Assembly: GCA_032718475.1 (NCBI GenBank)
Contig: JAUCBJ010008580.1
Coordinates: forward strand, 15,958-79,957
Reading direction: 5' to 3'
DNA length: 64,000 nt
From: Nemertoderma westbladi
Lineage: Eukaryota > Animalia > Xenacoelomorpha
Of this stretch, positions 20,900 to 54,068 are shown in pieces. Below the pieces are notes generated by a model. It made no database searches. It saw nothing but the letters and a program-made list of their open reading frames with translations, and was not told where the DNA came from. The translations under genes were made by a program, and so were the position numbers. Positions within the stretch are counted from its first letter, which is position 1; each line of letters begins with the position of its first letter.

Positions 20900-20911
20900 G
20901 GGTCGGGGGCG

Positions 20912-29325: not shown

Positions 29326-29327
29326 TT

Positions 29328-34436: not shown

Positions 34437-34758
34437 TTAAAGGCCACCAATTATTCTACAAATCTTAACGCCTAAGAATATTTATTTTCACTTTCAAACC
34501 TTTTTAACTACAAGCGTTTGAAAAGTGTTTTATTGAGTCTATTTAATTACTATCTATTAGGGAGAAGGGGGGGGGGGGGGGGACTGGACGCAAAACCCCT
34601 TCTTGGCGAATTAATATCCCGCCTTGATGAATTATTTCACTATAAGGTAGCATTTGTAGTTTAACTTTAACGTAAAAACTTTTGAAAATCCGACGTATTT
34701 TGATTAAGTTACAGTAATGTAATATGCCTATTTATATTTGTACACATAAAACCCTTAG

Positions 34759-34849
34759 GTACTCTCGTGGCGTAGTGGTCAGATGGTTAAGGCGTTGGTT
34801 ACATTACGTAGGTTATGAGTTCGAATCCCAGTCGGGAAATTTGTATTTT
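34759..34849 (+). ncRNA. tRNA-like Pol III cassette in the LTR (not a canonical tRNA); second copy at ~51924-52014
   Basis: A box TGGCGTAGTGG, tRNA-Ser/Leu-like TGGTTAAGGCG, B box AGTTCGAATCC, then TTTT. Confidence 0.55.
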
Positions 34850-34883
34850 GGGGCAATTTATTTTCGTGTGGTGCTAATTGATA

Positions 34884-35131
34884 GGCCAATGAGAAGCGTA
34901 CAGCGTAGCGAATAATGAGCCAGGCCAATCATAGGGCATAAATTACCTTATTGCTCAAATGTGAGGCAGTGGAAAATTCTGTTAGGATTCCATGTCCCAG
35001 ATTAGTGTAAGGGCTGGACTGCGTTGAACGATGAGCTGGGCCAATCATAGGGCACGACGCACTTCATTGCTCAATTGTGAAGCTGTGGAAATTTCTGTTT
35101 AGTTTCCATGTGCAATTTCTAGTATATAAGG
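34884..35131 (+). promoter_or_regulatory. Putative Pol II promoter in the LTR: three GCCAAT boxes and a TATA box
   Basis: GGCCAAT at ~34884, ~34923 and ~35039 within duplicated enhancer-like units; TATATAAG at ~35123. Confidence 0.55.
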
Positions 35132-36897
35132 CCGGTTTGCCTTCGGTTATGACTTCTACCCCCTTCGCTTCCAACGTTACTCTATCAGTTTACTTTTGTA
35201 AAATTAGTTAATTCGGTTTCTTGTTGAAACTTGTTTGATAAATCCTTTGTTAAAACTGTAAATATACTGCAATTTCCTGACATGTTTTCCTTTGGTCCGA
35301 CTTCGGGACAGCCGAACACCAGGGAGATGGCAGCCTAGACCGTTAGGCCATAAGCAACGCAGGGAAGGGATGTCCACAACACGCTAGCGCCCACATTGGA
35401 TCGACCGCGCACCCCCTTTGCCCCCCTTCGAAATGCTCAACTTGCCATGCAGCGCCCGCTTTGTGAGAAAGGTAAGACTTTGTTCGACGCCCTTGCCCGC
35501 CGTAAGACCTATAGATCAGGGTAAGCGTGACACCGCACTGGACGCCGCAAATTTAGGATCAAATAATTATATCCAGACACCCCCCCCCCTTCTTGTCAGT
35601 CCTACGAACCCCTGGGTTAACCTGTACTTCCTACAGGTGCGAACTATTGCCATTCGTCAGTACGCGAGTACACATTAGGCACGGACAGCATATGTTCCAT
35701 AATTTAGTGAGTCGTAGCACTGACTGTTTGGTACCGGTTCGCTTTGTAGAACGTACATTAGTACCCCCCCCCCCCCCTTGTCTGGAGTTAGCTATTTGAT
35801 CAGGCAAGGAGTATTTCTGCTACCGGCACACTGCTTGGCCTAGGGAGGTTTATTAATATCCTACCGCGCCTTGCCACGTACTGATAGGTATTGCTGCTAA
35901 CTACCGCAGCAACAAAGTTCTAGAATTAAATTAGTATACCAGATCAGCTAACGTACGGTAGCGATTAACCCCTATTCTTATCTTACAACCAGAATCTGGT
36001 ATTAGTGCCGATCACGGGTGTAGTTACTAACACTGTGGTTGCCCATTGGGTTGTGGATAGGAAGGAGAGAGCTTTGACGTCATTCGTGAGTATAAAGTTC
36101 TACAAACGCGACTAGTTTATTTTAGTAGCTAGCGCACGGTATCATTTTAGTCAGAAAATCACTAAAACCTAGTAAAAGGAATTACCCGAAATTGTTTTAT
36201 TTGTAACACACCCACACACACACGCCCTAAAACATATCGCCCTTAAAGTTCTACTAGCTATAGCGTACTATACATTACGTTAGGTGGAAATTATTTGTAT
36301 TTGTACAATTAGGATCTGATTTGATTGCGGCAAGATAAGGAGTATTTCACTTTCGTTATTAAACTGTTGTTTGTCTGGACAACGGTATTGTTACATTTAG
36401 GCCTGACCCTTTAGACTGATTTCGTACAGGGGGATCAGTTATTGTTACATTTAGGTACGACCCCTTTTCGACTGATTTAGGACTGTCAGTGTTGTTACGC
36501 TAGGTCTGTTAACCCACTAGCTCGTATATAACCCATATAAATCACACCGCGGCAAGTTACTGTATTTAGGACTGTCAGTGATAGTTAGGATTCGCTGCGT
36601 GGGGATTGTTTTCCCGTGAGTTTGGTCTGTTACGGTAACTGTACATCTGCCTCACCGGTTAGAGGACAGGTATCCTTCTGTCTAGTACGTAGGCATTAGA
36701 CCCGCTCACGTACATAGAATAGATACAAGGCTCTGTTCCTCGCCAGTAGTCGTTTGTGTACTATATCTGTTTGTTTAGATATCCTGGACTGGGATTTGTT
36801 TTCAGATACTGTACAAGCCCGTATACATTACTAGAGTCTCATAGTAAGATACATCGTTACTAGGATCTGGTAAGCGGTATACTACTGGACCCTTACA

Positions 36898-36908
36898 GTA
36901 GGAAGTAC
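36898..36908 (+). promoter_or_regulatory. Non-tRNA primer-binding site of BEL C (GTAGGAAGTAC)
   Basis: Abuts the LTR end; exact reverse complement GTACTTCCTAC at 35624-35634 (and 52794-52804). Confidence 0.62.
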
Positions 36909-37803: not shown

Positions 37804-40800
37804 ATGAGTGACACACCCCATTCGACGAGATACCCACCTACCGACTATGACTCGTGCGACCCGGACAGATCGACAGTAGACGAACCTAGAAGGAGAACCC
37901 GAGATTCCACCGATGTCACACCGCTTGCGTCGCCGGTACCCCAAACGGAAATACCGGAAGCCGCAACGCGTGGCGACGGCAGAATCGAAGATTTCCTTAC
38001 CGTCCCGCAGACTAGATCGCGGGAACCGGACATGGTAAGTTCGACTGGGAGCCAGGAGAACGTTATTAGAAGTATAGGAGGACACATGGCCCAGATTACT
38101 CGGAACCTCGGAGAAGGTTTTCGCGTTTTACGCGAGTTAACCGCCCCGATGTCGAGATACGAGTTCTACACCTTACAGGTAAGGATAGAAAGTAGGGTAC
38201 ATGCCTCCGTAGATAAACTTAAAGGTTTGCACGAACTTGCAGAGTTGCGTGGCGACAACTTTACTCAGGTAAAGATAGTGGATAAATTGGTAAGTGCGAG
38301 AGAAAGCATTATCCAGTTTAAGTCGGTAATAAGCTTGGCTCAACAGGAGCAGTTCGACCAACTGCTAGGTGAGTCAGTTTCGGACGCGTTGTTACAACCC
38401 GAAGAGGAAGAAGAACTCTACTGCCTGGACGGAAGGTTGGAAACGCTGACCAATTTTCTTCGTAGATGCGGCGTACCGATCGACGAACCGGAAGTCGAAC
38501 CGCGAGGGACGACGGAAGTTCTCACTACGGAAGGCTCGCGAGCCTACCAACATCCACCACTGGATAGATCGTTCGTTAGCGTACGGAGCGACGTTGGCAA
38601 CGTTGGCGACGTTAGTAGAACAGCGTCTGGAATTACTCGACAACAACAGGAGGTTGCACGCCGACAACAAGTCGCCGAGGAAGAAGCGCGACACCAGATG
38701 GCACAGATCGCCATCGAAGGAGAGAAACAACGTAGAGAAGACGAGGCAAAAATTGCACAACTCAAGGCGCAAGCTGAATTCGAAGCATCAGAAATGCGCA
38801 GATTGGAGGAAGACTTAGCGCGAGAAGCGGCCGCGGCGGCAGCAGCGGACGAGTTAGCACGGAAGAAAGCAGCATCAGACGCTCGTGCCAAGTTGGAGGC
38901 GCGGCAAATAAACGCTCGATTAGCTATACAGGAAGCGGAATTAGCGGCACAACAACAGGACGCAGATCGACGCGAAAGGGAGATGCAACTACAGTTCGAA
39001 TTGAATCGTAGATCGCGCGAGACAGCGAACGCGCAAGCGGACCTCGAACTCGACGCGAGAGATAGATCTATGAGATCGCGGACTGGACACGACTTGTCTG
39101 CCCTGGATCGTATGGAAGCTCGATATCGCGGAATACAGAAGCGGATCGAGGAAGGAAGCGTGGGAGCGATAGATCGAGGAGAGGAGTTCGTCGAGGATTA
39201 CTGTAAACGTTTTCCCCAAGTTATTCCTATGCTCAAACCCACGACTCCGATAAAACCGGTCTTCGTTACGAAACCTAAGGAAATAACGCCAGTGCGTTCG
39301 ACGCAAGGCAACAGGTTTGTTGTGACGGAAATACCGCAACCTAGGGCGACTTCATCGCCAATTTTAGCAGGTAACGTTACTAGTCCACCTACAGTAAGTC
39401 GTAGTCTACTTGTAGGAAGAGAGGAACCTGCGTTTATGACCATTAAACAGGTGAGTAAACCATTACAAGTTAAACCTGTGACGTGCTGTGCAAATCCAGT
39501 TATTTACAGACCGACTACGAAACCCGACTATTTCACTCGACCGTTGACACAATGTTCGACGCAACCTACGACTTCGTGGAAGGCTTGCGAGCCTACCGAA
39601 CTACGAAGGAGGATGGATGTGGGTAGTACTCACGGGATCGGACAACGTATAGCGAGACCTACGACTTCGTGGAAGGCTTGCGAGCCTACCGAACGACGGA
39701 GAGCCGTAGATTCCGGACCACAACGGACGAGACCCAGGATAATACGCCGGACACGAACCCGCCAGCCACCTTATCCGGACGACAGCGATTCATCTAGTGA
39801 CTCGGAGTCGACGGAACGGGAAATATTCCGTACTGGAGCGGCGGAAGATTGTAAACGGGAGGAACGATCGACGAATCCATACATCGACAATCCTCCACGA
39901 GAAACACCCCAACAGAAACCCACGTTGAAACCAGCGGAAACGATCAGCGCTAAACAGTTCACCGAGATGACGGACAGAATAGCTCAACTCGAAGAACGAC
40001 TCGAAGCGCAACCGTCGGATCGATCACGGACCAGCGTGGAATTGGAACAACCTAGACAACATCGACCACCGAGGAGAGAACAGGAGACTAGACGGACTCC
40101 GACACATCGAGAGGAAGATCCCGTTAATAATTCCTACCGACGAACAACGCGCGGAAGGGAGCGACTGGACGACGCCACCGAACAAGGACGCGGACAGTTG
40201 GATTTAGTTAGCGAGATTGCGAAATTCGCGGCTAGACACGGATTACCGGCACAGCAACCGCCGAAGTTCTCTGGCAACGCGAAACACTGGCGCACACTGG
40301 TAGACTACGTAGAGTCCCAGATCGCTAAGTGTGCTTTCACCTCGACGGAGAAGTTTAACTACTTGCTCCAAGTCCTGTCTGGTGAGCCGAAACGATTAGC
40401 GGAAACCTTTATAGGTGTTCCCGATGCCTTCGAGTTGGCGTACGACCGTTTGTATTCGATTTACGGCGGTAATGTCGCCATGGCTAAATCCATCATAGAA
40501 GACCTCTGCAGAGGAGGCAACATTTCGAGACCGATCGATCTTTTACGACTCGCGGACGAAATAAAGAACGCTATAGGGACTTTACGGTCCATTGGGCAAC
40601 TCGAGTACGCTAACGCACCGACGGTTCTCATTCGAATAATCGGTCGACTTCATCATCGACTACGACGAGAATGGCGACGCATCGAGTACCAGCGCGAAGA
40701 GGCCGGAGGGTTATTAAAACTCACCGATGTCTATCAACTTATTTCACGGGAGGCCGTGATCGAGACTCGATCGAACTATACCGATCACCATATCGCGGCG

Positions 40801-43800
40801 GAAGGGATAACTGTTTCTGCGCCGAATCGGACTAAACCATTTCCGACGAACGCGAAAGCCGTTACTTACGCCACCCCTACTGAGACTTCTAAAGTTCTGA
40901 CGCCTATCGGCACCACGCAGCCACGACAACAGTTGCCGGCGGACTTTGTGGGATGCTCATACTGCGAGCGGAACGGCAGAAACCATAGCGGACATAAACT
41001 ACGTGCATGTCGCGCTTTTAAAGAGTTAGGGATCGAGGAGAGGAGACTCCAAATCCGATCTCTAGATTCCTGTTGGAGATGTATGAAGCCAGGACACGTC
41101 CGGAAGGATTGCCCGAGCGATGATACATGTTCTTTGTGTGGACGTAACCATGACGCGTTGCTTCACACAACCAGTCATACTCCGACCCGACGCTTTCGAC
41201 GAGAGCATCCAGATAAAGCGGCTAGATGCGACGCGCTTTATAAGGAGCGTGCGCCGCGCGAGATCCGTACCTTTTATACCGACTGTATGGATCAGTCAGG
41301 ATCATCGGAAGAGGACGAGGAGGAAGACGACACTTTCTACGTGCATGCAGGTGAGGAACAACCATCGATAACGCTCCTCACACAGAACCAATTGAAAGGG
41401 TTTAGCGTGATTCCTATAAAGATTACCGGGACCCGAGGGAGCAAGCGTATATACGCCATCTTAGACTCTGCGTCATCGCATAGCTATGTCGACGAACAAG
41501 TAGCCGACGTAGTTACGGACTTGAGTCAAGGTAAGACTGCTCAGTATACTGTAAGCAGCATGCATGGTAAGAGAGCGATTCCTGTGACAAGAGTAAAACT
41601 AACTTTAGACACTCTTCTTTCCAAAGCGGAACACAGCAAGGAGGAGCGCTCATTACTTCCGGTAAGAAATTTGACCTTTGCAGCTACGAAGGACTTTAGT
41701 AACTTGCTCGGCCCTGTGCCAGAGCAATCTCCGGAAGATCGTAAGTATTTCCGACACCTTGGAATACCGGAATGTCCTGTCAATTATCGTTCCATTGCGA
41801 TGTTAATTGGGACAGACCAGTTTAACTTACATCAGGTATGGGAGACACGCCCATCTGTTATTACAGCGGGCAACCCCTACGCATGTAGAACTCCCATAGG
41901 TTGGTATACTAGAGCACCAATACGTTCACTAGAGGTAAGTGACCAGGAGGACGACGTTTTGAGTACGTGTAGTTTATTGACTAACACGATAGATAATTCT
42001 CCCTCACACTCCTGTGGTCCAATTGTACGGACGGCACTACGACAGACTTGCGTCACTAACGCAGACGCCACCGATACTGACGTAACCGATCTGGACACGA
42101 CCATACGGACCTCTGACTTACAACTACTTGCAGTAGACCAGGTTGTATTGACTACTGAAGACCTGAGGGTTGTTGCTGTGGATGACTCGATGAACGAGGA
42201 TTTTGGAAGGCTTGCGAGCCTACCGAAAAATCCGAAGGTCATTGACCCCACCCACCAGGCTTCGACACCGGTCGTTGATCTTGGAAGGCTTGCGAGCCTA
42301 CCGATAGATCAAGAAGTTGTCAAACCGCCGCACGACAATTCGACGCCGACTAGTGACACCGGAAGGCTTGCGAGCCTACCAGACACATTGACACTAGCCA
42401 CCGCAGCGGACGAAGACGTGGACGAGGACCATGGCGCAGTGCAAGCAGCGCTTGACCGACTGCTGACTGAACGGACCATACAATGGTTGGAACAGGACTC
42501 AGCAGAACCCGGTAGTTACGAGACCGCTATGTCAGAACAGGAAAAACGGTCATTAAATATTATGAGAGATACCATTCGCCAGACCGCGAATGGCCACTAT
42601 GAGGTTGGTATGTTGTGGTGCAATGGACAACCTAAGCTCGTTAACAATTACCCGCTTGCTTTGAGGCGACTCAAATCAATAAGGCAGCGATTGTTGCGAG
42701 ACGAGACGGCCCATATGCAATACAATGCACAACTTCAGACGTATCTCCAAAAGGGATACGCCATTAGGATGTTAAATCCTGAGGTAACTACAGACCAGAC
42801 ATATTACCTGCCACATCATTTTGTTCGACACCCGGACAAACCTGGCAAGGTGCGTGTAGTCAACGACTGCGCTGCACTTTACCAAGGGATGTCTATGAAT
42901 AGCGAACTGATGGACGGGCCGAATATGAACAATTACCTCATGGGAGTCCTAATGCGTTTTAGACAACGCAAAGTGGCTTTCACCTGTGACGTAGAGGCCA
43001 TGTTTCACCAGGTTAAGGCTTTGGAGCGGGACAGGGACAGTTTGAGGTTTCTTTGGTATCCGGACGGAAACTTACAACTTCCGCCAGAAACTTACCAAAT
43101 GCAGGTAAGAGTATTTGGAGCCAGGGACAGCCCCAACTGCACCATGTACGCATTGAAGCAGACAGCATTAGACAGACGAGACCAATTTGACCCAGAAGTA
43201 GTTCGGACCATGGAACGAGACTTCTACGTGGATGACGGCCTCAAGAGTTGTGACACCTTGGAGCGCGCTACAACCGTAGCACACCAACTCCAGGATTGTC
43301 TCGCTGAGGGCGGATTTCACCTGACGAAGTTCGCTTCCAACGAACCCGAACTGGTGAACTCATTTGACCCGATGGACCGTAGCGGAGGTGACTTGGACTT
43401 AGACCTAGAACCTCTGCCGACGACCAAAGTACTAGGACTTAGTTGGGACCCTAACACCGACAATTTTAGGGTACGTGTAAGGTCCAACGACCAGACTAGA
43501 CCTCTCACTAAGAGGACTTGCTTATCGACCATGAGTCGATTGTATGACCCATTGTGTTTCATTAGTCCAGTGATCCTACATGCCAGGATCATACTCCGCA
43601 GCATTTGGCAAGCCGGACTGGAATGGGACGATCCCATCCCAGAAAAGTTAGCTGAGCGATGGAGGGACTGGGAAGCCCAACTGACGTTCCTACAAGACTA
43701 TACCATACCAAGGGTATACTTTCCTTTGCAAACCACCTTTCCTGCCGATTTAGAGCTTCACAGCTTTAGTGACGCTAGCAAGGATGGATTGGGGGTTACT

Positions 43801-46644
43801 TTATACCTTAGACGACAAGTGACATCGGACAGCTACGATGTATCTCTCGTTACTTCAAGGGCTAGAACAATGCCATTGAAGTATATGACTGTACCTCGTG
43901 GGGAGCTGCAAGCCGGGACGATATCCACCGATATTGTCAGTCTAGTTCAACGCGAGCTGGAGGCTAACTTGAAGGTCACATATTGGACGGATGCGACGTT
44001 GGTACTTTGGTACATAAACAACGAAACATTTGAGTTCAAGACTTTCGTAGCCAACAGACGGGCTGAAATACTAGACCGGTCGCTCAAACAAGATTGGCGT
44101 CACTGTCCAGGGAAGCTGAACCCAGCTGACATCGCGTCACGGGGAATGCAACCACTTGACTTTTGTAAACCGGACAATAAATCCTTTTGGTTTAGAGGAC
44201 CCGATTTCCTACAGCGACCATCAGACGAATGGCCACCGTTATTCGACGCGACAACCAACACCATACCAGAGGGTGCCGAGATAAAACTCGACAAGGTTGT
44301 CAAGTCTAAAGCGAAAGCCAACGCCAAGGTCAAGAGGAAAAAGGGACGGACGAAATCTGATGACCTGGACGCCAGACCTGACATTACGCCAGACGTCTCG
44401 CCAGACACTCGACCAGACGCTTGTACGAATCCTTCGCCGGATGTTCCGCGGGAGATTTCACCAGACGTTTCGCCGGATTGTTCACCAGATTACTCGCCAG
44501 ACTATTCACCAGAAGAGACACCAGATTGTTCTCCGGATTGTTCGCCAGATTGTTTGATGGAACTCTCGACAGAATGTCTACCGGACATCTCACCAGATTG
44601 TTCACCAGACATCTCGACCGACTGTCCACCAGACTTTGAATCAGACTTTCTGACAGAAGTTGCGCTAGACAGACTTTGGGACCGACGACCGGACATTTCG
44701 CCGGATGTTCCGCGCTATGTCTCACCAGACGTCTCACCAGACTGTTCACCAGACGCTTCACCAGACTGTCTACTAGATACTCCATTAGAAGACCCATTGG
44801 AGCGGACTTTTAGAGACGTACTAAATTTGACTTCTTTGGACGACAAAGGAGTAGCCACAGGGATTACACTCCGCTCGAAGAAGGTACTTGACTTACCTAC
44901 AGGTAAAGTGGTGACTAAGGTTAGGAAGCTTACAGGCTCACAGGAACACACTGACACTGTAGAGTTGAAACCATTACTGCCAGTCGACATATTAGGTGCG
45001 GACGGCAAAGGTAAGACCGTAGAGATTGACGTACTTGGGGACTCAGACAAACCTACCGGAAGGCCCGTGGGCCTACCAAGTCCAGACAAGTATCCACACT
45101 ACGACTACACCTTACCCGATGACGTCACTAACACTTACGTAGACAGGATAGTGAACCTAACTAGATCATGGACTGACGCGTGCCGCAAGTTAGCATGGCT
45201 CAAACGATTGAGACAATATGCCAGAGGCAAACGCGACTTTCCTAGAAGACTTACCTTAAAGGAAATTGAACACTGTGAAGTTGATATCATTCGACATTAT
45301 CAATTGCGATATTTCGCACGAGAGTTCACAGCGATCAAACAAGGTAAACAGATTAAGTCTTCACCGATTTTGAGTTGGAGTCCGATTATTTACCGGGGCT
45401 TACTTTGTCACAAGTCCAGACTCCAAAACATCGACTTTGCACTTGACTTTAGGTATCCTATCATCATACCGCAACACCATGAGTTACAGCGCGCTATGAT
45501 ACTGGACGCACATGTACAACTCAAACACGTAGGTAGACACCACTGTCTATCACACTTACGCTCGAGGTTTGTACTGATTAGACCTAGTAAGGCACTGAGT
45601 TCAGTAACACGGAACTGTATTATTTGTAAGAAGGTGCACGCGAGGATAGGACACCAAGAAATGAGTGAACTACCATTAGCTAGATTACAGGCATTTAGAC
45701 CCCCTTTCACTGAGACAGGGATAGACTGTTTTGGACCCATAATCGCGAAACGCGGAAGGGTACAGGTAAAACGTTGGGGATTGATCTTCACTTGCATGGC
45801 CAGCAGAGCTGTCCATATAGAGCGAGTGACAGACTTGTCCACCAATGCCTTTATCCTAGCCTTACGGCGATTTATCGCTAGACGTGGATTGGTCAAATCC
45901 ATATACTGCGACCAAGGGACAAACTTTGTGGGTGCACGGAACGAGATAACCAGAGCTTTGAGAAAATTGGACCAAAACCAGATTTCCGAGGAACTACGTC
46001 CTCACCGTATTGTTTGGTTTTTCAATACTCCAGACAGTCCGTGGAGAGGCGGCGTTTGGGAAAGGCTGATTGGCTCAATAAAGACAGCTATGGCTAAAGT
46101 CGTACCGACGCAACACATCTTGACAGACGACCAACTGACGACGTTACTAATAGAAATCGAAGCAATCTTAAATACCAGACCGATCGCTTTGATCCCACAC
46201 AATAACGACGTACAGTTTGCCTTGACACCAGCGCACCTGCTTATGCAGGCGCCGACGACACTGTTGCCCATTTCGGTACCCGTTGATAGTGACGGATACG
46301 GCAACAAGGCTTGGAAAATCACTCAATTACTTGCAAATAAATTCTGGGAAATATGGCAGAAATATTATTTGCCCTCTATTTCGACCAGAACCTCTTGGTA
46401 TATAAATACCCGGTGTTTAAAACGTGGTGACCATGTTTTATTGGCTGAAGCCAATCTGAGAAGACGGTTTTGGCTGACTGGAGTCATTTTGACCACGCAC
46501 CCTACATCTGGTGTAGTGAGGACAGTTACTGTACGGACTATCGACGGACGTACCGTAGATAGGCCTGTACAACGTCTCGTACTCCTCGAGGAGACTAGAA
46601 ACGAGACGGGAGACTACAAATCTCCACCCAATATTAGTAAATAG
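37804..46644 (+). CDS. BEL/Pao Gag-Pol polyprotein, 2946 aa, uninterrupted
   Basis: Gag PKFSGNAKHW..EKFNYLLQVL; three knuckles (CSYC..H..C, CWRCMKPGHVRKDC, CSLCGRNHDALLH); protease AILDSASSHSYV; RT FTCDVEAMFHQV, FYVDDGL; RNase H HSFSDAS, RGELQA, WTDAT, NPADIASRG; integrase HHCC, GIDCFGP, CDQGTNF, WERLI. Confidence 0.97.
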   Translation: MSDTPHSTRYPPTDYDSCDPDRSTVDEPRRRTRDSTDVTPLASPVPQTEIPEAATRGDGRIEDFLTVPQTRSREPDMVSSTGSQENVIRSIGGHMAQITRNLGEGFRVLRELTAPMSRYEFYTLQVRIESRVHASVDKLKGLHELAELRGDNFTQVKIVDKLVSARESIIQFKSVISLAQQEQFDQLLGESVSDALLQPEEEEELYCLDGRLETLTNFLRRCGVPIDEPEVEPRGTTEVLTTEGSRAYQHPPLDRSFVSVRSDVGNVGDVSRTASGITRQQQEVARRQQVAEEEARHQMAQIAIEGEKQRREDEAKIAQLKAQAEFEASEMRRLEEDLAREAAAAAAADELARKKAASDARAKLEARQINARLAIQEAELAAQQQDADRREREMQLQFELNRRSRETANAQADLELDARDRSMRSRTGHDLSALDRMEARYRGIQKRIEEGSVGAIDRGEEFVEDYCKRFPQVIPMLKPTTPIKPVFVTKPKEITPVRSTQGNRFVVTEIPQPRATSSPILAGNVTSPPTVSRSLLVGREEPAFMTIKQVSKPLQVKPVTCCANPVIYRPTTKPDYFTRPLTQCSTQPTTSWKACEPTELRRRMDVGSTHGIGQRIARPTTSWKACEPTERRRAVDSGPQRTRPRIIRRTRTRQPPYPDDSDSSSDSESTEREIFRTGAAEDCKREERSTNPYIDNPPRETPQQKPTLKPAETISAKQFTEMTDRIAQLEERLEAQPSDRSRTSVELEQPRQHRPPRREQETRRTPTHREEDPVNNSYRRTTRGRERLDDATEQGRGQLDLVSEIAKFAARHGLPAQQPPKFSGNAKHWRTLVDYVESQIAKCAFTSTEKFNYLLQVLSGEPKRLAETFIGVPDAFELAYDRLYSIYGGNVAMAKSIIEDLCRGGNISRPIDLLRLADEIKNAIGTLRSIGQLEYANAPTVLIRIIGRLHHRLRREWRRIEYQREEAGGLLKLTDVYQLISREAVIETRSNYTDHHIAAEGITVSAPNRTKPFPTNAKAVTYATPTETSKVLTPIGTTQPRQQLPADFVGCSYCERNGRNHSGHKLRACRAFKELGIEERRLQIRSLDSCWRCMKPGHVRKDCPSDDTCSLCGRNHDALLHTTSHTPTRRFRREHPDKAARCDALYKERAPREIRTFYTDCMDQSGSSEEDEEEDDTFYVHAGEEQPSITLLTQNQLKGFSVIPIKITGTRGSKRIYAILDSASSHSYVDEQVADVVTDLSQGKTAQYTVSSMHGKRAIPVTRVKLTLDTLLSKAEHSKEERSLLPVRNLTFAATKDFSNLLGPVPEQSPEDRKYFRHLGIPECPVNYRSIAMLIGTDQFNLHQVWETRPSVITAGNPYACRTPIGWYTRAPIRSLEVSDQEDDVLSTCSLLTNTIDNSPSHSCGPIVRTALRQTCVTNADATDTDVTDLDTTIRTSDLQLLAVDQVVLTTEDLRVVAVDDSMNEDFGRLASLPKNPKVIDPTHQASTPVVDLGRLASLPIDQEVVKPPHDNSTPTSDTGRLASLPDTLTLATAADEDVDEDHGAVQAALDRLLTERTIQWLEQDSAEPGSYETAMSEQEKRSLNIMRDTIRQTANGHYEVGMLWCNGQPKLVNNYPLALRRLKSIRQRLLRDETAHMQYNAQLQTYLQKGYAIRMLNPEVTTDQTYYLPHHFVRHPDKPGKVRVVNDCAALYQGMSMNSELMDGPNMNNYLMGVLMRFRQRKVAFTCDVEAMFHQVKALERDRDSLRFLWYPDGNLQLPPETYQMQVRVFGARDSPNCTMYALKQTALDRRDQFDPEVVRTMERDFYVDDGLKSCDTLERATTVAHQLQDCLAEGGFHLTKFASNEPELVNSFDPMDRSGGDLDLDLEPLPTTKVLGLSWDPNTDNFRVRVRSNDQTRPLTKRTCLSTMSRLYDPLCFISPVILHARIILRSIWQAGLEWDDPIPEKLAERWRDWEAQLTFLQDYTIPRVYFPLQTTFPADLELHSFSDASKDGLGVTLYLRRQVTSDSYDVSLVTSRARTMPLKYMTVPRGELQAGTISTDIVSLVQRELEANLKVTYWTDATLVLWYINNETFEFKTFVANRRAEILDRSLKQDWRHCPGKLNPADIASRGMQPLDFCKPDNKSFWFRGPDFLQRPSDEWPPLFDATTNTIPEGAEIKLDKVVKSKAKANAKVKRKKGRTKSDDLDARPDITPDVSPDTRPDACTNPSPDVPREISPDVSPDCSPDYSPDYSPEETPDCSPDCSPDCLMELSTECLPDISPDCSPDISTDCPPDFESDFLTEVALDRLWDRRPDISPDVPRYVSPDVSPDCSPDASPDCLLDTPLEDPLERTFRDVLNLTSLDDKGVATGITLRSKKVLDLPTGKVVTKVRKLTGSQEHTDTVELKPLLPVDILGADGKGKTVEIDVLGDSDKPTGRPVGLPSPDKYPHYDYTLPDDVTNTYVDRIVNLTRSWTDACRKLAWLKRLRQYARGKRDFPRRLTLKEIEHCEVDIIRHYQLRYFAREFTAIKQGKQIKSSPILSWSPIIYRGLLCHKSRLQNIDFALDFRYPIIIPQHHELQRAMILDAHVQLKHVGRHHCLSHLRSRFVLIRPSKALSSVTRNCIICKKVHARIGHQEMSELPLARLQAFRPPFTETGIDCFGPIIAKRGRVQVKRWGLIFTCMASRAVHIERVTDLSTNAFILALRRFIARRGLVKSIYCDQGTNFVGARNEITRALRKLDQNQISEELRPHRIVWFFNTPDSPWRGGVWERLIGSIKTAMAKVVPTQHILTDDQLTTLLIEIEAILNTRPIALIPHNNDVQFALTPAHLLMQAPTTLLPISVPVDSDGYGNKAWKITQLLANKFWEIWQKYYLPSISTRTSWYINTRCLKRGDHVLLAEANLRRRFWLTGVILTTHPTSGVVRTVTVRTIDGRTVDRPVQRLVLLEETRNETGDYKSPPNISK
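44371..44770 (+). repeat. In-frame 12-bp minisatellite encoding (S-P-D-x)n between RNase H and integrase
   Basis: SPDV/SPDC/SPDY/SPDI units; TCNCCRGAY repeats. Confidence 0.9.
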
Positions 46645-47382
46645 ATGTGGGACCTTGGTTGGCCGCCACATAGACCTACTGTATTTTAGTTATTTGTATT
46701 TGTATTACTGTACGTGCATTTGTAATCCTCTTCACTGTAGATAGAGACAGCGGTGGAATTCCATTGTCTTTATACGTGAACATGGAGGGTAGTACCCTTA
46801 TGTATCACATAGGAGCGGGATTGTGTGTACAGTAGGAATGGAATTCCACTTGGAACCCACAAGTGAGACATTTTCAAAAATTATTAGACAAATCCATTTA
46901 TTTGGATTTAAATTTAAGAAAAACGATTCTCCAGTGAAAGCAAATTCTAGAATACAGCTAGAAAAAAAAAAAAATTAAAATTGGGGAGGACAAGAGCGGA
47001 TGGAAGGCTTGCGAGCCTACCGATAAATTTTTTTTGGAAAAGAAAATCGGTCTTGTTCTACGTAGTCGTGTCTACTATTATTTTGACCAATTAATTCTCG
47101 ACTGCACTATTTTTCTTGGAAAACGTAGTTTGGGAAATTAAAAGGTGAGTATTTTAGACTCGCGGCTAGTTTACCCGGAATTCGTTTTTTATCGGCACAA
47201 TTTTGGATTAGGAGCCAGTGCGAAATTACGCGAACCCGAAATCATTAGGCAAAATGGGTTGGGGTTTAGAGCAGAGTTGAGCCAAAAGCCGACAAACTCT
47301 GAAGTCACCTCACATCTAACCTCTATTTTGTGCTTCATCTAGTAGAAACGTAACGATATGTAACCACATATATTCGTATACA

Positions 47383-50300
47383 ATGGAGAAGATGTATAAA
47401 GAGTTACGTCAAGGGTTTACGCAAGAACAGGAGCACCAGGCGCCATTTAATCGTTATGGAGCTAAAAACTTTAGTGTGTTTGGAGTGGAGAGTATGGCTA
47501 GGAGTACAGCCAAGCTCGCTAAATCCAAGGCGGACCCGAATGTTACGCGACAGCGGTTGGACGCATACAACAAAAGAACGGAGGAATTACGCGCGGAATA
47601 CAATGCGTTATATCCCTACGATGCGTTATGCGACGCTAGCGACATTTGCGAGGATCCAGACACCGAAATACGCCGATTGTATCATACGCTGCAATATTTG
47701 ACGGTAAACGAACCTTTACCTGCAGCTAGAGACGAATTTGAAGGAATGCATCTTTATAGACGCGCTCGAGGAGCGGATCCAGAGACCAAGGATGCGTTTT
47801 CCGTATATAAACTGTTCTATAAATGCGGAGCGTGTATGCGCGAGCAAGACAACGCGATTCCTATGCGGTTGAACTCGGAGAACCCCGAGCCGATATTAGC
47901 GCGATGTTCACACCACCAAAGTCTACGTTATCAAGAAGGCGGATACCCTTTGACAAACCCGTATCATTCGTTTAAGATGAGTGGACCAAACGCGGGTGAA
48001 ATTGTTATTTACGAACCAAAATTAGTCGAACCAGACGTCTACAGTATGGTAGTGGACGAGTCTAATAAGTCGACACAAGAGAAACGGGAAGCTTTGAGCC
48101 TCTACAGGGCGTACAAGGCGTACGAGAAAGGCGAGATCGAGGAGTTCGGCGGAAGGCTTGCGAGCCTACCATTCTATTGGATATCCCACGATCAAACCGA
48201 ACCCAAGGAGATGACACCCGAGCTCTTCGATAGTATCACCTTTGCTCAGCGTTTGTCGCAGAGACTACAGATACCTCACGTTGAGATGACGCGAGAACCT
48301 CAGCCCCATTCTACTGGAGCAATAGTACCGGTTGCGAGACCAACTAGTTTTCCTATTAGTATACCGACCCGGAAGGAGACAACTTACGAGATCCCTATAG
48401 TTGAACACCCGGAGATCATCTCGAACCTGGATTTCCTCCCATCGGTCACCTTCGGTGATGTGTTAGAATCAACCGAGTTGCGTAAAGTAATAGTTCAAAA
48501 AATCGTACGCAACGTGCCTCCACATATCACGGACTTTAAGGAAGTGGATCGCGCGGGGACGGATATCGCACCTTGTATCTTGCGAGGATATCTGACGAAA
48601 ACGATTCGATTATGGATCGGAGTTGGGACGTTTGAGACCGACACCGATATCGCGACCAATTGGACTGGTAAACCTATTAGTTTCGATGATGAAAAGTCGA
48701 TCGGGAGAATTTGGAACCCTACCGATGATTTACTCGACGATTGGGACGTGACTAGCCGATCTCTAAAAGAGAATGGATATATGTTTTACGATAATGAAGG
48801 AGGAAGCCATCAGCAAAGCCTCACTTCAAAGACGATACAGATTAGAGCACCAGATGGCGTGTTACATGTCTTCAGCCGACAGAGGAGTGATAGGAAGATG
48901 CCTATGCCGGAAGGAACGACGCAAAGACACGCGATGATAAAACGGATAGTTAAATCCATGGACCTGGCTTGTAGCATAGAAGCTAGGATGTTGCCAAAGG
49001 CCGTACGAGACGTTGTGTTGGATAAGAGCATCGTCAAGATCGGATCCGGTGTACGGGATGACCTCATTAGCGACTTTGCAGGGATGCCCACGGAAGAGGA
49101 CCGATTGCCTACGCCATACGTGGATACTAGACCATTGTTGCTTTGGGCTATTAAGCAAGGATACTTTAGAGAGTATAACACGCTAAAAACTGGGACGGGT
49201 TATATCTCATATCTGATGTTCAGTTGGGATTACAAGGAGAGTAAGAGGAACAAATACACGGACGTATACGGAGAGGGAGATACCCCCGGCGTAAACGAGT
49301 TCGAGTCACAGTTGAAGTGGCGAGGTTGCGTGTATTGGGCGATTACTTCACCTCCGCGGATAATCTTGCAATATTATTTAGCGATAGAATCTTCGGTTAA
49401 CGTTTGTTTCATCGCGGACGTAGTATCCAGAACCTTAAAGCGACACCCGTTATGTCTTGGCGAAGGACATACCTTTTACGATGGAGGAAGGACGCATACT
49501 GATGTATTCCGACGATTTCTCCAACCCTTTTATAACACCGATGCGCACTGCGAAGTTTTCACGCGAGCGGGACTTAGCGTTTTCAGGGACGTCTATCTCA
49601 CTCACGCGGGAAGTCTAGTCGACAGACCGTCGATGTTAACGTTAGTACCCTATGACGGGGAACGCCACGCGGAATTCGAACGCCCGGAAGGATCCTGGAA
49701 GGCTCGCGAGCCTACCGCCCATCATGACGATGTGGATCCGACCGAGTTGGCGCTAATAGACGAACCGTTACGGCAACTCATAGAAATAGAAGAGAACCTT
49801 CCAAGGAAGACGCGAACTGAGATACGCGAGTTAGAGAAAAGCGATGCCATGGTTTGTGTACAACCTACGGAGACGAACATACCGACTGACCCGGATGATG
49901 AGAATTATCACGTGGACGGTAGCGCTCGCCCCATCGGAGACCTCATCTATGAGCGAGTTTGGTATCCTGCCAACACTATTTGTGGCAGATGTGGAGCAAC
50001 TGGCCATCACGCAAAGAAGTGCGGAGCGAAGCACATATCTCTACCGGATTTAGTATGCAACTGGTGCGGGGATCAACGTTCGCACACTTTCTACACTTGC
50101 TGGCGTTTCGTGGCGCAGTGTACTTATTGTAATATTAAGGGCCATAGGGCATCGGAATGTCAACTTAGAGACGTCCCCTATGAGCACATGTCAGTTAAAA
50201 TCGTTCGACAATTATTCGACCATTGGGAGGACCTAGCAGACGAGCATGTATCGACGCAGCGACGCCGCTTCCCTATGAGAGCACATTTGGGATTTTGGGC

Positions 50301-51135
50301 CGTAAACCCTCTCATAATGTCAAAGGAAGGATATGTATCGGCTATGCCTCAGTACGATGAATTGTTGGAGGTATTGGATATATTGCCGTTGGACAGTGGA
50401 TTCAAGGTTGTGCGGGATTATTTCTTACAAGTGCACCCCGACAACAAGAATACTTGGAACTTTCAAACTGTGGTGAACAAGATTACCGCCGGAGAATTCG
50501 ATAAACTGCGAGTTGAACAGCGGAATCGAGGAGCCTGGCATTCGATAGCTTGGGCATACCGGAGCGCATTTTATCACAAACGCGTAACCTCGTGCATTCT
50601 GGACGAGACCGACGTTTTGCGTGAGACTGGCTTCAAGGCCACGCCGTTAGCGGAGAAGACGCGTCACCCACAGGATGATCAGCAATTTCGTATACTCAAA
50701 GCCCAAAAGGCCGGACAAGAGATTAAGAAGATAGTGAATGTCGCCGAGAGGACGACATCGAAGTCGCAAATCCGGATGACTCGGGGCACGGTTTCCCTTG
50801 CTAGAGAACCACGCGGAGGGACAGGATACGCTTTGACTGAACCCATTAGGATTCAAACGACGTCAGAGAGCGAGGTGTCAACGGACGGAACAGTCCTACC
50901 CTTTCGACTTCCTCCTAGCGTTGTAGAAACTCGATCCGATATTAAGTCGACAGTTGGAATCGGACGAGGATTTAGAGGATTGAGCGCACGACGGATGTGC
51001 GAAACCCCCGTCGTCCCCTTTCCTAGCGTTTTGGAACCACCGACAACTCGACGCCGAAGTCCGAGCCCTGTTCGACCTCGACCACCCCCCAATCGCACTA
51101 GAGGACGTGGACGAGCCCGCTCAGCGAAGGAATAG
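47383..51135 (+). CDS. Accessory ORF2 (1250 aa): putative DEDDy 3'-5' exonuclease-like domain, 3 CCHC zinc knuckles, Arg/Ser/Pro-rich tail
   Basis: ExoI MFYDNEG..KTIQIRAPDGVLHVF (48781); ExoII LPKAVRDVVLDKSIVKIGSGVRDDL (~48990-49065); YVDTRPL; ExoIII-like W..TSPP..LQYYLAIE (~49335-49390); knuckles CGRCGATGHHAKKC, CNWCGDQRSHTFYTC, CTYCNIKGHRASEC (49981-50160); no signal peptide or TM segment seen. Confidence 0.85.
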   Translation: MEKMYKELRQGFTQEQEHQAPFNRYGAKNFSVFGVESMARSTAKLAKSKADPNVTRQRLDAYNKRTEELRAEYNALYPYDALCDASDICEDPDTEIRRLYHTLQYLTVNEPLPAARDEFEGMHLYRRARGADPETKDAFSVYKLFYKCGACMREQDNAIPMRLNSENPEPILARCSHHQSLRYQEGGYPLTNPYHSFKMSGPNAGEIVIYEPKLVEPDVYSMVVDESNKSTQEKREALSLYRAYKAYEKGEIEEFGGRLASLPFYWISHDQTEPKEMTPELFDSITFAQRLSQRLQIPHVEMTREPQPHSTGAIVPVARPTSFPISIPTRKETTYEIPIVEHPEIISNLDFLPSVTFGDVLESTELRKVIVQKIVRNVPPHITDFKEVDRAGTDIAPCILRGYLTKTIRLWIGVGTFETDTDIATNWTGKPISFDDEKSIGRIWNPTDDLLDDWDVTSRSLKENGYMFYDNEGGSHQQSLTSKTIQIRAPDGVLHVFSRQRSDRKMPMPEGTTQRHAMIKRIVKSMDLACSIEARMLPKAVRDVVLDKSIVKIGSGVRDDLISDFAGMPTEEDRLPTPYVDTRPLLLWAIKQGYFREYNTLKTGTGYISYLMFSWDYKESKRNKYTDVYGEGDTPGVNEFESQLKWRGCVYWAITSPPRIILQYYLAIESSVNVCFIADVVSRTLKRHPLCLGEGHTFYDGGRTHTDVFRRFLQPFYNTDAHCEVFTRAGLSVFRDVYLTHAGSLVDRPSMLTLVPYDGERHAEFERPEGSWKAREPTAHHDDVDPTELALIDEPLRQLIEIEENLPRKTRTEIRELEKSDAMVCVQPTETNIPTDPDDENYHVDGSARPIGDLIYERVWYPANTICGRCGATGHHAKKCGAKHISLPDLVCNWCGDQRSHTFYTCWRFVAQCTYCNIKGHRASECQLRDVPYEHMSVKIVRQLFDHWEDLADEHVSTQRRRFPMRAHLGFWAVNPLIMSKEGYVSAMPQYDELLEVLDILPLDSGFKVVRDYFLQVHPDNKNTWNFQTVVNKITAGEFDKLRVEQRNRGAWHSIAWAYRSAFYHKRVTSCILDETDVLRETGFKATPLAEKTRHPQDDQQFRILKAQKAGQEIKKIVNVAERTTSKSQIRMTRGTVSLAREPRGGTGYALTEPIRIQTTSESEVSTDGTVLPFRLPPSVVETRSDIKSTVGIGRGFRGLSARRMCETPVVPFPSVLEPPTTRRRSPSPVRPRPPPNRTRGRGRARSAKE

Positions 51136-51169
51136 GAAGCGAGTGGAAGGAAGGCTTGCGAGCCTACCG

Positions 51170-51280
51170 ATTTGGATATTATATTTGGATATTATATTTG
51201 GATATTATATTTGGATGTTATATTTGGATATTTTATTTGGATATTTTATTTGGATATTTATATTGGACATTATGTTTGAA
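51170..51280 (+). repeat. 13-bp tandem repeat (TTTGGATATTATA), ~8 copies
   Basis: Directly visible in the 3' UTR of element C, between two hairpin motifs. Confidence 0.85.
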
Positions 51281-51782: not shown

Positions 51783-51789
51783 GGAGCGG
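51783..51789 (+). promoter_or_regulatory. Polypurine-like tract before the 3' LTR
   Basis: GGAGCGG|TG; element B has GGGAGCGG|TG at the same position. Confidence 0.7.
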
Positions 51790-54068
51790 TGATGAATTAT
51801 TTCACTATAAGGTAGCATTTGTAGTTTAACTTTAACGTAAAAACTTTTGAAAATCCGACGTATTTTGATTAAGTTACAGTAATGTAATATGCCTATTTAT
51901 ATTTGTACACATAAAACCCTTAGGTACTCTCGTGGCGTAGTGGTCAGATGGTTAAGGCGTTGGTTACATTACGTAGGTTACGAGTTCGAATCCCAGTCGG
52001 GAAATTTGTATTTTGGGGCAATTTATTTTCGTGTGGTGCTAATTGATAGGCCAATGAGAAGCGTACAGCGTAGCGAATAATGAGCCAGGCCAATCATAGG
52101 GCATAAATTACCTTATTGCTCAAATGTGAGGCAGTGGAAAATTCTGTTAGGATTCCATGTCCCAGATTAGTGTAAGGGCTGGACTGCGTTGAACGATGAG
52201 CTGGGCCAATCATAGGGCACGACGCACTTCATTGCTCAATTGTGAAGCTGTGGAAATTTCTGTTTAGTTTCCATGTGCAATTTCTAGTATAAAAGGCCGG
52301 TTTGCCTTCGGTTATGACTTCTACCCCCTTCGCTTCCAACGTTACTCTATCAGTTTACTTTTGTAAAATTAGTTAATTCGGTTTCTTGTTGAAACTTGTT
52401 TGATAAATCCTTTGTTAAAACTGTAAATATACTGCAATTTCCTGACATGTTTTCCTTTGGTCCGACTTCGGGACAGCCGAACACCAGGGAGATGGCAGCC
52501 TAGACCGTTAGGCCGTAAGCAACGCAGGGAAGGGATGTCCACAACACGCTAGCGCCCACATTGGATCGACCGCGCACCCCCTTTGCCCCCCTTCGAAATG
52601 CTCAACTTGCCATGCAGCGCCCGCTTTGTGAGAAAGGTAAGACTTTGTTCGACGCCCTTGCCCGCCGTAAGACCTATAGATCAGGGTAAGCGTGACACCG
52701 CACTGGACGCCGCAAATTTAGGATCAAATAATTATATCCAGACACCCCCCCCCCCCCCCTTCTTGTCAGTCCTACGAACCCCTGGGTTAACCTGTACTTC
52801 CTACAGGTGCGAACTATTGCCATTCGTCAGTACGCGAGTACACATTAGGCACGGACAGCATATGTTCCATAATTTAGTGAGTCGTAGCACTGACTGTTTG
52901 GTACCGGTTCGCTTTGTAGAACGTACATTAGTACCCCCCCCCCCCCCCTTGTCTGGAGTTAGCTATTTGATCAGGCAAGGAGTATTTCTGCTACCGGCAC
53001 ACTGCTTGGCCTAGGGAGGTTTATTAATATCCTACCGCGCCTTGCCACGTACTGATAGGTATTGCTGCTAACTACCGCAGCAACAAAGTTCTAGAATTAA
53101 ATTAGTATACCAGATCAGCTAACGTACGGTAGCGATTAACCCCTATTCTTATCTTACAACCAGAATCTGGTATTAGTGCCGATCACGGGTGTAGTTACTA
53201 ACACTGTGGTTGCCCATTGGGTTGTGGATAGGAAGGAGAGAGCTTTGACGTCATTCGTGAGTATAAAGTTCTACAAACGCGACTAGTTTATTTTAGTAGC
53301 TAGCGCACGGTATCATTTTAGTCAGAAAATCACTAAAACCTAGTAAAAGGAATTACCCGAAATTGTTTTATTTGTAACACACCCACACACACACGCCCTA
53401 AAACATATCGCCCTTAAAGTTCTACTAGCTATAGCGTACTATACATTACGTTAGGTGGAAATTATTTGTATTTGTACAATTAGGATCTGATTTGATTGCG
53501 GCAAGATAAGGAGTATTTCACTTTCGTTATTAAACTGTTGTTTGTCTGGACAACGGTATTGTTACATTTAGGCCTGACCCTTTAGACTGATTTCGTACAG
53601 GGGGATCAGTTATTGTTACATTTAGGTACGACCCCTTTTCGACTGATTTAGGACTGTCAGTGTTGTTACGCTAGGTCTGTTAACCCACTAGCTCGTATAT
53701 AACCCATATAAATCACACCGCGGCAAGTTACTGTATTTAGGACTGTCAGTGATAGTTAGGATTCGCTGCGCGGGGATTGTTTTCCCGTGAGTTTGGTCTG
53801 TTACGGTAACTGTACATCTGCCTCACCGGTTAGAGGACAGGTATCCTTCTGTCTAGTACGTAGGCATTAGACCCGCTCACGTACATAGAATAGATACAAG
53901 GCTCTGTTCCTCGCCAGTAGTCGTTTGTGTACTATATCTGTTTGTTTAGATATCCTGGACTGGGATTTGTTTTCAGATACTGTACAAGCCCGTATACATT
54001 ACTAGAGTCTCATAGTAAGATACATCGTTACTAGGATCTGGTAAGCGGTATACTACTGGACCCTTACA
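51790..54068 (+). repeat. 3' LTR of BEL C (2279 bp)
   Basis: Direct repeat of the 5' LTR; differs in two poly-C lengths and ~4 substitutions. Confidence 0.97.

Follow-up and report, generated by a model that had tools for sequence, protein, structure and literature searches.

What might a protein of 1250 amino acids do that is encoded behind gag-pol in an LTR retrotransposon, at the place where some elements carry an env gene? The question is raised by a 64,000-nucleotide stretch of the Nemertoderma westbladi genome (GCA_032718475.1, contig JAUCBJ010008580.1), here called the window, whose positions are used throughout. An original prediction, made from the sequence of the window, had proposed that a BEL/Pao element encodes there a DEDDy exonuclease-like protein with zinc knuckles in place of env, possibly acting in primer or RNA end processing or against silencing. 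How BEL/Pao elements replicate is, by published account, poorly understood, with tRNA given as the primer (PMC8742986), and the accessory protein offers a concrete handle on the role of non-env third genes in retrotransposons.

Results

A young BEL/Pao retrotransposon houses the accessory ORF

The open reading frame at 47383-51135 is housed between the LTRs of an intact BEL/Pao element of 19.4 kb, laid out as follows.

34625..36897, forward strand: 5' LTR, 2273 bp, TG..CA, with a TATA-like box at 35123 and multiple splice donors and acceptors
37804..46644, forward strand: gag-pol, a single ORF of 2946 aa with BEL/Pao domains
47383..51135, forward strand: accessory ORF, ATG start, 1250 aa, no stops, closely preceded by splice-acceptor-like sites (47342 and 47345)
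51790..54068, forward strand: 3' LTR, 2279 bp, with a short purine tract before it and the target duplication after it

The two LTRs are 99.56% identical and end in TG..CA, and the 5 bp CGCCT is duplicated at the target on either side of the element. Gag-Pol matches the Pfam families Peptidase_A17, DUF1759 and DUF5641 in the domain order of BEL/Pao, and Gag carries zinc knuckles of its own. The element is a young BEL/Pao retrotransposon, and the predicted identity is borne out by the Gag-Pol domains and their order, the paired LTRs and the target duplication. Its reverse transcriptase region is 41-47% identical to the best matches and sits on a long branch; as the grouping of the query with P0018 by FastTree risks being a long-branch artefact, no clade name was assigned. 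Rfam and ARAGORN searches returned nothing real.

The accessory ORF follows the gag-pol stop (46644) and precedes the 3' LTR, and its frame is open throughout, as had been predicted. The notion that it stands in place of env holds for its position behind pol; as to replacement, nothing indicates that an env was displaced. The ORF matches no env family and contains no hydrophobic segment above 1.5. Its highest 19-residue hydropathy (1.48, at aa 660-678) is under the usual level of a membrane segment, in agreement with the prediction that none is present, and the N-terminus is hydrophilic. For 11 relatives both ends could be defined; in these, the gap from Pol to the 3' LTR measures 55-771 bases, which leaves no space for a third gene in any of the 11.

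Other copies of the element bear on its coding state. Of 124 indels, the 12 with the best support comprise 11 that lie in non-coding sequence, which makes up 24% of the stretch, and one that preserves the reading frame. Three substitutions between copies (2 silent, 1 replacement) fall in the ORF among the 40 listed of 1579 rows, too few for dN/dS. Joints within the ORF that have short sides were attributed to divergence between copies or to the hairpin repeats. The element family is abundant in sequencing runs from three studies, and none of the runs listed as carrying it is an RNA run.

The middle domain is likely a DEDDy-type exonuclease

The motifs named in the original prediction are all there and in the order given: ExoI (D470/E472), ExoII (aa 537-561, with D559/D560), VDTRP at 580, W652 and Y665-x3-E669.

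48703..49452, forward strand: DEDDy-like 3'-5' exonuclease domain, about aa 441-690, with D470, E472, D559/D560, Y665 and E669; fold predicted from sequence

The predicted family emerges from two different methods. Language-model features (Atlas) of aa 430-760 retrieved PF01612 3'-5' exonucleases in 24 of 30 matches, with a score of 0.92, to be read against shuffled proteins that attain 0.9 in 4-10 of 100; the shared features numbered 162, vs 170 typical for true family members. A DEDDy profile was built from 30 bacterial EXD2/WRN-like proteins and picks out WRN, Mut-7, EXD2, NrnC and Rrp6 in the PDB. Against this profile the domain scored 8.1 bits, a value reached by none of 2000 shuffles (best 2.6) and owed mostly to ExoII, and the best of the Pol controls among those scoring was 1.7 bits. 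The Atlas score and the profile score, both modest, support a remote similarity to the DEDDy family.

The ExoII block stood out within the ORF with a z of 7.0, the next best position having 3.3. The whole ORF was also searched for ordered blocks, with gap limits fixed after the sequence had been seen. This search selected the predicted ExoI and the two strands that come after it, ExoII, and the strand with VDTRP, a result equalled by 0 of 150 shuffles; when ExoII was left out, the score was matched by 22 of 150 shuffles and was thus not above chance. D470 and E472 were chosen as the ExoI acids by the ordered search and lie outside the top four positions for the ExoI block alone. ExoIII, 13 residues past W652 and with Glu replacing Asp, was placed by eye only, and the block scans did not recover it.

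Library and structure searches returned no counterpart. PF01612 was not matched in Pfam by the whole ORF or the excised domain at E up to 10, a PDB sequence search gave no exonuclease, and phmmer over 1.84 billion proteins found no exonuclease and a single knuckle-only match. None of 4776 candidates from a word-index search was related to exonucleases, phage tblastn gave matches at E 7-10 only, and scans of viral and metagenome contigs were blank for exonuclease. The hhalign probability was 3.8%. Two AlphaFold models were unusable, one made without an alignment (pLDDT 32) and one from 30 bacterial DEDDy sequences misaligned by MAFFT at ExoI and ExoIII (pLDDT 44), and fold searches with the latter gave helix matches only, uninformative on the fold. 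The predicted DEDDy fold with three knuckles thus has two sequence-based tests on its side, and neither a structure nor a library HMM; we regard the middle domain as likely to be a DEDDy-type exonuclease.

Zinc knuckles, a basic tail and an array of hairpins

Further features lie around this domain and along the element.

47824..47916, forward strand: possible extra zinc site in the N-terminal part (C148, C151, C175, H177/H178), seen in the sequence
49981..50160, forward strand: three CCHC zinc knuckles, aa 867-926
50923..51132, forward strand: Arg/Pro/Ser-rich tail, with 15 Arg, 11 Pro and 7 Ser in the final 70 aa
38529..51330, forward strand: 20-nt hairpin array, 12 copies (11 near-exact and one variant), all on the sense strand

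Both the tandem knuckles and the tail are as had been predicted. The knuckles start at C867, C892 and C913, and their excised region scores 22.3 bits against zf-CCHC, over a cut-off of 20.8. The N-terminal part with the possible zinc site matched no family, and an Atlas search with aa 40-300 gave no usable match. The near-exact hairpins are at 38529, 39578, 39671, 42205, 42283, 42361, 47002, 48151, 49697, 51149 and 51311, and the variant at 45058 has a paired change in its stem. Copies within coding sequence are read in three frames.

A distant BEL/Pao family, L089/L090, contains an ORF of matching layout without the catalytic acids. It is under purifying selection: silent and replacement codons number 8:1 in the exo-like part, 16:3 in the knuckle part and 21:18 in the following 140 codons on the tail side. 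On the DEDDy profile this ORF scores above 1000 of 1000 shuffles; compared directly with the exo-like part of the accessory ORF, its own was equalled by 57 of 1000 shuffles, which is not significant. With no catalytic acids in the L089/L090 protein, activity may be dispensable.

The element likely starts copying from its own RNA

No TGG follows the 5' LTR, and an 18-nt site for the 3' end of a tRNA is missing; the lack of TGG speaks to tRNA 3' ends and not to internal stretches of host tRNAs or snRNAs. The position can pair with RNA of the element's own LTR.

36898..36908, forward strand: primer-binding site position, TGG start absent, complementary to LTR RNA of the element itself
35624..35634, forward strand: exact 11-base complement of the primer site; its end lies 2 bases short of an AG acceptor (35636)
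35258..35599, forward strand: candidate intron within the LTR, with GTAAAT as donor and a pyrimidine run ahead of the acceptor; splicing putative

Eleven complementary bases were attained by 13 of 2000 shuffled LTRs, and those found here lie about 500 bases downstream of the TATA-like box. In Tf1-type self-priming, RNase H frees the opening bases of the transcript as the primer. Excision of the candidate intron, whose donor pattern was relaxed after the site had been seen, would join up 9 bases able to pair with the primer site. Across 18 BEL loci tested, the primer site pairs with the locus's own LTR RNA in 15, 12 of them across a putative splice junction; the window's other BEL element showed no such pairing in an unanchored screen. 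From these complementarities the element likely starts copying from its own RNA. A joint at 36084-37215 (run X1) was discounted as splicing: it begins at a donor and is 7 bases off the best acceptor.

The guess that the accessory protein processes primers gains from the missing tRNA site and from the ability of the primer site to pair with the element's own RNA. It loses because relatives without the accessory ORF show the same pairing, so that the ORF is dispensable for priming in general. A stricter version, in which an intron-tail primer could not be used without trimming by the exonuclease, lost weight on the same ground, and is also weakened by the 9-base splice-built primer within the same element.

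What the accessory protein may do

We tentatively favour, with a confidence somewhat short of even, a divergent DEDDy-type 3'-5' exoribonuclease whose three knuckles would bind the element's own RNA and which would trim RNA 3' ends, for example that of a self-made primer. The protein would be expressed from spliced RNA through the acceptors at 47342/47345. Its knuckles would hold element RNA, with the 12 hairpins as obvious candidate sites, and the nuclease would strip unpaired 3' bases up to the duplex, on the model of the trypanosome RNase D with CCHC fingers that acts on guide RNAs. One substrate could be the 3' end of the primer likely made from the element's own transcript, where trimming would be needed because the complementary copy ends 2 bases before the splice acceptor. 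This would be an accessory step aiding a genome of twice the usual size, and would not be essential to the clade as a whole. The explanation draws support from the working RNA-trimming design that an exonuclease with C-terminal CCHC fingers represents in Trypanosoma brucei RNase D, TbRND (PMC7797062), from the same layout under purifying selection in a second BEL/Pao family, and from the retained ExoI acids together with the Atlas and profile results. It is weakened by the lack of a Pfam, PDB or phmmer exonuclease match, by the two unusable AlphaFold models, and by a link between protein and hairpins that is purely conjectural in an element whose Gag has knuckles of its own.

The nuclease and knuckles might instead act on 3' ends or precursors of host piRNAs or siRNAs and so shield the element, which we find rather doubtful. 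The closest solved relatives of the DEDDy profile include Mut-7/Nibbler and EXD2, a silencing-related role has been raised for rotifer DEDDy ORFs, and relatives can replicate without the ORF, a dispensability often seen in genes in conflict with a host. Very fast evolution, indicated by the lack of a relative among 1.8 billion proteins, and the abundance of the family in runs of three studies also fit; the same rotifer work reports no clear link of the ORFs to copy number (PMC5408684). A non-cutting domain, in a protein that attaches to the hairpins and serves to package, transport or stabilise the long RNA, would be comparable to the dead DEDD domains of EXD1 and Maelstrom, both named as inactive derivatives (PMC5408684). 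The apparent Glu at the last catalytic Asp, the conservation of the L089/L090 protein despite its lost acids and the 12 strand-specific hairpins distributed along the RNA speak for such a scaffold. We nevertheless hold it to be unlikely: D470, E472 and D559/D560 are kept in a domain otherwise very divergent, and Asp-to-Glu at one acid is also reported from rotifer ORFs considered intact (PMC5408684).

Another possibility is that the middle domain is not DEDDy at all and its likeness to ExoII arose by chance in an orphan knuckle protein, as the blank library searches and AlphaFold models and the chance-level score of the other blocks would allow. The agreement of two different methods on a family named in advance and the independent score of the L089/L090 ORF on the DEDDy profile make this very unlikely. 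The nidovirus ExoN proofreads large RNA genomes, and a separate 3'-5' exonuclease could likewise excise wrongly inserted bases while an oversized genome is being reverse transcribed. PF01612 takes in polymerase proofreading domains, and the element measures 19.4 kb, vs 4.2-10 kb for its family (PMC8742986). Yet the knuckles and basic tail suggest RNA binding, the candidate relative L089/L090 has no catalytic acids and contact with the reverse transcriptase is conjecture, so that we consider proofreading extremely improbable.

The preferred RNA-trimming explanation can be extended to a whole lineage. A BEL/Pao lineage would have dropped tRNA priming and would use host splicing to assemble a primer out of the LTR RNA of the element itself; in its giant member a knuckle-guided DEDDy exonuclease would dock on hairpins and trim the primer, possibly an excised-intron tail two bases too long, with active and dead versions of the gene across distant families. 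As a whole, this scenario is quite unlikely.

Discussion

The element is twice the described BEL/Pao size and has a nuclease-like accessory gene, of a kind that we found reported only for rotifer retroelements. Together with its relatives it points to priming by own spliced RNA, and the primer duplex, the 20-nt hairpin and small RNAs are candidate substrates for the protein.

DEDDy cargo is already known: a DEDDy ORF3 is described from the Juno and Vesta LTR retrotransposons of bdelloid rotifers and from Athena/Terminon elements (PMC5408684, PMC6431247, PMC5718144), with 3'-end processing of element RNA as its proposed role. Compared by description, the accessory ORF resembles it as a separate non-env ORF behind pol that is DEDDy-like, has no membrane segment and has one catalytic Asp changed to Glu. 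The rotifer motif is stated as DEED, whereas the accessory ORF is changed at the fourth acid. Unlike the element described here, the Juno, Vesta and Athena carriers lie outside BEL/Pao, and a triple CCHC knuckle is undescribed in rotifer ORFs, the term 'CCHC' being absent from the main text of PMC5408684. We found no report of the combination of BEL/Pao with knuckles.

In TbRND, tandem CCHC fingers that follow the 3'-5' exonuclease domain boost RNA binding and cleavage (PMC7797062), an order that is predicted for the accessory ORF too. TbRND is described as a cellular mitochondrial enzyme of ~350 aa with four fingers, whereas the accessory ORF has three knuckles and ~440 extra N-terminal and 320 extra C-terminal residues; it gave no sequence match to the TbRND chains in the PDB.

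With Belpaoviridae the element shares the Gag-PR-RT-RH-IN order, Peptidase_A17, DUF1759 and DUF5641, TG..CA LTRs and the optional third ORF behind pol (PMC8742986, PMC3118150). It differs in size (19.4 kb with 2.27-kb LTRs vs 4.2-10 kb with LTRs of 0.2-1.2 kb; PMC8742986), in a third ORF that is not env-like and in the missing primer site, which in Belpaoviridae is 18 nt complementary to the 3' end of a host tRNA (PMC8742986). In its pairing of ~11 bases of its own RNA with the primer site, with no tRNA, the element is like the self-primed Tf1/sushi, Tcn1, TAR and Houba/Osr-1 elements (PMC7175516, PMC6317226).

An intact BEL/Pao element with a long accessory gene

The BEL/Pao element at 34625-54068 (+ strand) is intact and recent, and behind its gag-pol frame it carries a long accessory ORF.

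34625-36897 and 51790-54068, LTRs, 99.56% identical, with TG..CA ends and a 5-bp duplication on both flanks
47383-51135, + strand, accessory ORF, 1250 aa, ATG start

The element measures 19,444 bp, against the 4.2-10 kb described for the BEL/Pao family, whose LTRs are given as 0.2-1.2 kb long (PMC8742986). Gag-pol is one ORF of 2946 aa that contains the BEL/Pao marker domains and ends 738 bases before the accessory ORF, whose coordinates and length are as originally predicted. Named Pol relatives are mostly cnidarian, mollusc and echinoderm (best matches 41-47% identity), and the element forms a long branch in a tree of 121 rows. From the end of Pol to the 3' LTR we counted 5146 bases, versus 55-771 in 11 other loci with both ends defined.

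Contigs from sequencing runs of three studies reach every one of the 30 bins into which 34625-51150 was divided and carry many variants, which places the ORF in a multi-copy family; one of the runs may come from the window's own source. Of 124 indels, the 12 best supported include 11 in the non-coding 24% of this interval, and the remaining one adds 3 bases, a distribution consistent with selection on both reading frames, with the caveat that AT-rich non-coding DNA tolerates indels more readily anyway. At 44385-44790, 12-bp tandem repeats give rise to an SPD-rich insertion at the RNase H/integrase boundary. A tRNA-like fragment in U3 (34765-34840 and the matching part of the 3' LTR) was seen by eye and drew no ARAGORN or Rfam call. 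The window holds further repeats:

2145-5888, - strand, second BEL/Pao element, broken by stops and extending past the window start
9640-10665, 31937-32680 and 33278-34101, a 162-163-bp repeat in arrays, with one array forming an inverted pair immediately left of the element's insertion site
22711-23595, + strand, gypsy RNase H-integrase fragment
29298-30584, + strand, non-LTR reverse transcriptase fragment
59184-59938, 380-bp tandem duplication with short ORFs matching no known family

The middle domain resembles DEDDy exonucleases

Searches of Pfam, PDB sequences, a word index and 1.84 billion proteins (phmmer) with the ORF returned nothing beyond its three CCHC zinc knuckles, and two AlphaFold models gave no usable fold for the exonuclease-like domain. 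Language-model features of aa 430-760 scored 0.92 to the PF01612 3'-5' exonuclease cluster (24 of 30 matches), a level to be read against shuffled proteins, which score 0.9 in 4-10 of 100 trials; the match gains weight from the family having been named beforehand. We also built a DEDDy profile, using 30 members of a set of 120 EXD2-like proteins from bacteria; this profile recovers WRN, Mut-7, EXD2 and Rrp6 from the PDB. On the ORF region it scored 8.1 bits, reached by none of 2000 shuffles (best 2.6), with the best Pol control at 1.7 bits; the match covers aa 537-561, which form the helix and strand of ExoII (z 7.0).

An ordered block search, with gap limits chosen after the sequence was seen, put ExoI at 465-474 between a leading strand at 441 and two strands at 482 and 493, followed by ExoII and a strand at 577 (0 of 150 shuffles), as originally predicted; with ExoII unscored, 22 of 150 shuffles equalled it. 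The DEDDy assignment itself is partly supported, by the feature match and the profile, against blank library searches and an ExoIII block that the ordered search did not pick up. D470, E472 and D559/D560 are retained, and the fourth acid reads E669. Taken on its sequence, the domain very probably has a DEDDy fold, and its chances of being catalytically active are near even. The ORF is a real accessory gene, probably a DEDDy exonuclease-knuckle fusion.

A second exonuclease-like knuckle layout in BEL/Pao

We surveyed 95 BEL/Pao loci, 17 of them with enough DNA past Pol to examine. Two, 29% identical to the element in the RT region, have a comparable gene:

L089 6616-9009 and L090 5459-7843, ~795-aa ORF downstream of pol and separate from it

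Its order matches that of the window ORF: exonuclease-like strands, an ExoII-like block, a helix, three knuckles and a low-complexity tail. On the same DEDDy profile the exonuclease-like part scores 6.0 bits, beating 1000 of 1000 shuffles, and the knuckles resemble those of the window ORF (2 of 1000 shuffles). Direct comparison with the window ORF fails for the exonuclease-like parts (57 of 1000 shuffles) and for the stretch that follows the knuckles (330 of 1000), tblastn at E up to 1 missed the gene, and the catalytic acids are absent from it. Between L089 and L090 the exonuclease-like part differs by 8 silent codons and 1 replacement, versus 21 and 18 in codons 521-660; the ORF is under purifying selection. 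The arrangement thus appears more than once in BEL/Pao and is under selection, having arisen either by common descent or through separate capture.

The L089/L090 ORF is low-complexity at both ends and belongs to a 21-member cluster. In L088 (~4730-8270) the integrase extends in frame by ~1180 residues, comprising an acidic linker plus a region that is rich in cysteine and contains hydrophobic segments; the extension has no Pfam match and is likely an env. Contigs in prokaryotic genome bins (L074-L095) carry animal-type BEL/Pao, most likely host contamination.

The primer site pairs with the element's own LTR

TGG is not present after the 5' LTR of the element. Bases 36898-36908 are exactly complementary to LTR bases 35624-35634; a complement of 11 bases arose in 13 of 2000 shuffled LTRs. 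The LTR end is defined in 18 BEL loci. In 15 of them the primer site pairs over 10-14 bases, contiguously in 3 and across a GT-AG junction in 12. Besides the window element these are L021, L024, L031, L035, L049, L052, L068, L078, L079, L080, L083, L092, L009 and L076, the 15 representing about 11 families. L003, L057 and L075 lack pairing, L075 by one mismatch. Loci whose LTR copy stops at a contig end or breaks off (e.g. L022, L028, L061) were excluded, as was one L078 LTR pair not flanking Pol; L031 was retained because L052 defines the same end, and ends are less secure in L009, L083 and L092.

Three of five loci added once the idea existed pair. When LTRs and primer sites were swapped, 8 of 342 combinations reached 10 bases, all among related families. 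A further 20 loci, many of them lacking a complete LTR, yielded 3 matches in an unanchored screen, versus 0.1 expected. Primer letters vary among families, with paired changes between L079 and L080. In these relatives, pairing of the primer site with the carrier's own LTR RNA is the general pattern. The Ty3/gypsy-type element at 15154-21335 (LTRs of 425 bp, 99% identical; gag and pol frames differ) has neither a TGG start at the primer position nor pairing with its own LTR.

The window element also has a 9-base splice-built complement (donor 35258, acceptor 35599), which emerged only after the donor pattern was relaxed. A single contig of run X1 connects 35490 with sequence like that from 35637 on, the joint expected if a diverged copy were spliced at acceptor 35636, but the run is guessed to be DNA and the contig is the one example. 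Splicing there would excise the 11-base copy within the intron, two bases short of its 3' terminus.

A hairpin array in the internal region

The 20-nt sequence GGAAGGCTTGCGAGCCTACC occurs in 11 copies with at most one change; chance expectation is none.

38529-51330, all sense strand, hairpin array, 12 copies, confined to the element's internal region
45058, + strand, hairpin variant, stem change paired

All 12 fold alike, into a 5-bp stem with a 4-base loop and an A-A mismatch, though most 40-base pieces are barely more stable than shuffles. Copies sit in linkers of both proteins, in three reading frames, and in non-coding parts; being read in three frames argues that selection acts on the nucleic acid. 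The hairpin was not found in 102 related loci. The copies look like putative protein binding sites, with the Gag nucleocapsid and the ORF's knuckles as candidates.

Possible roles of the accessory protein

In trypanosome RNase D, CCHC fingers boost RNA binding and exonuclease cleavage (PMC7797062). By analogy, we tentatively favor an accessory protein whose knuckles would bind the element's RNA and whose nuclease would trim free 3' ends, with the self-made primer as its most evident substrate. Relatives without the ORF indicate that it is not a general requirement of self-priming. Anti-silencing by the protein is a weaker candidate, somewhat unlikely in our estimate. Slightly less likely again is a dead RNA-binding scaffold, a reading to be set beside E669 at the fourth acid and the three retained acid positions. 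It is improbable that the fold call is wrong, given the profile score on one side and the blank searches on the other, and proofreading seems very improbable.

Comparison with known elements

Self-priming is on record for Tf1/sushi, Tcn1, TAR, Houba and Osr-1 (PMC6317226, PMC7175516). For BEL/Pao, we found no report of an exonuclease ORF or self-priming in the main texts of mostly open-access papers; term look-ups in PMC554778, PMC3118150, PMC8556966, PMC12440569 and PMC9094657 gave neither. Besides its probable exonuclease-knuckle gene, the element stands out in two other respects. For nematode Cer elements, early papers reportedly mention an accessory domain that resembles an exonuclease; in that case an exonuclease in BEL/Pao would not be new, and any novelty would lie in the fusion to knuckles, in size and in context. 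DEDDy third ORFs occur in the rotifer elements Juno, Vesta and Athena, and the functions guessed for them are the same as those proposed here (PMC5408684, PMC6431247, PMC5718144).
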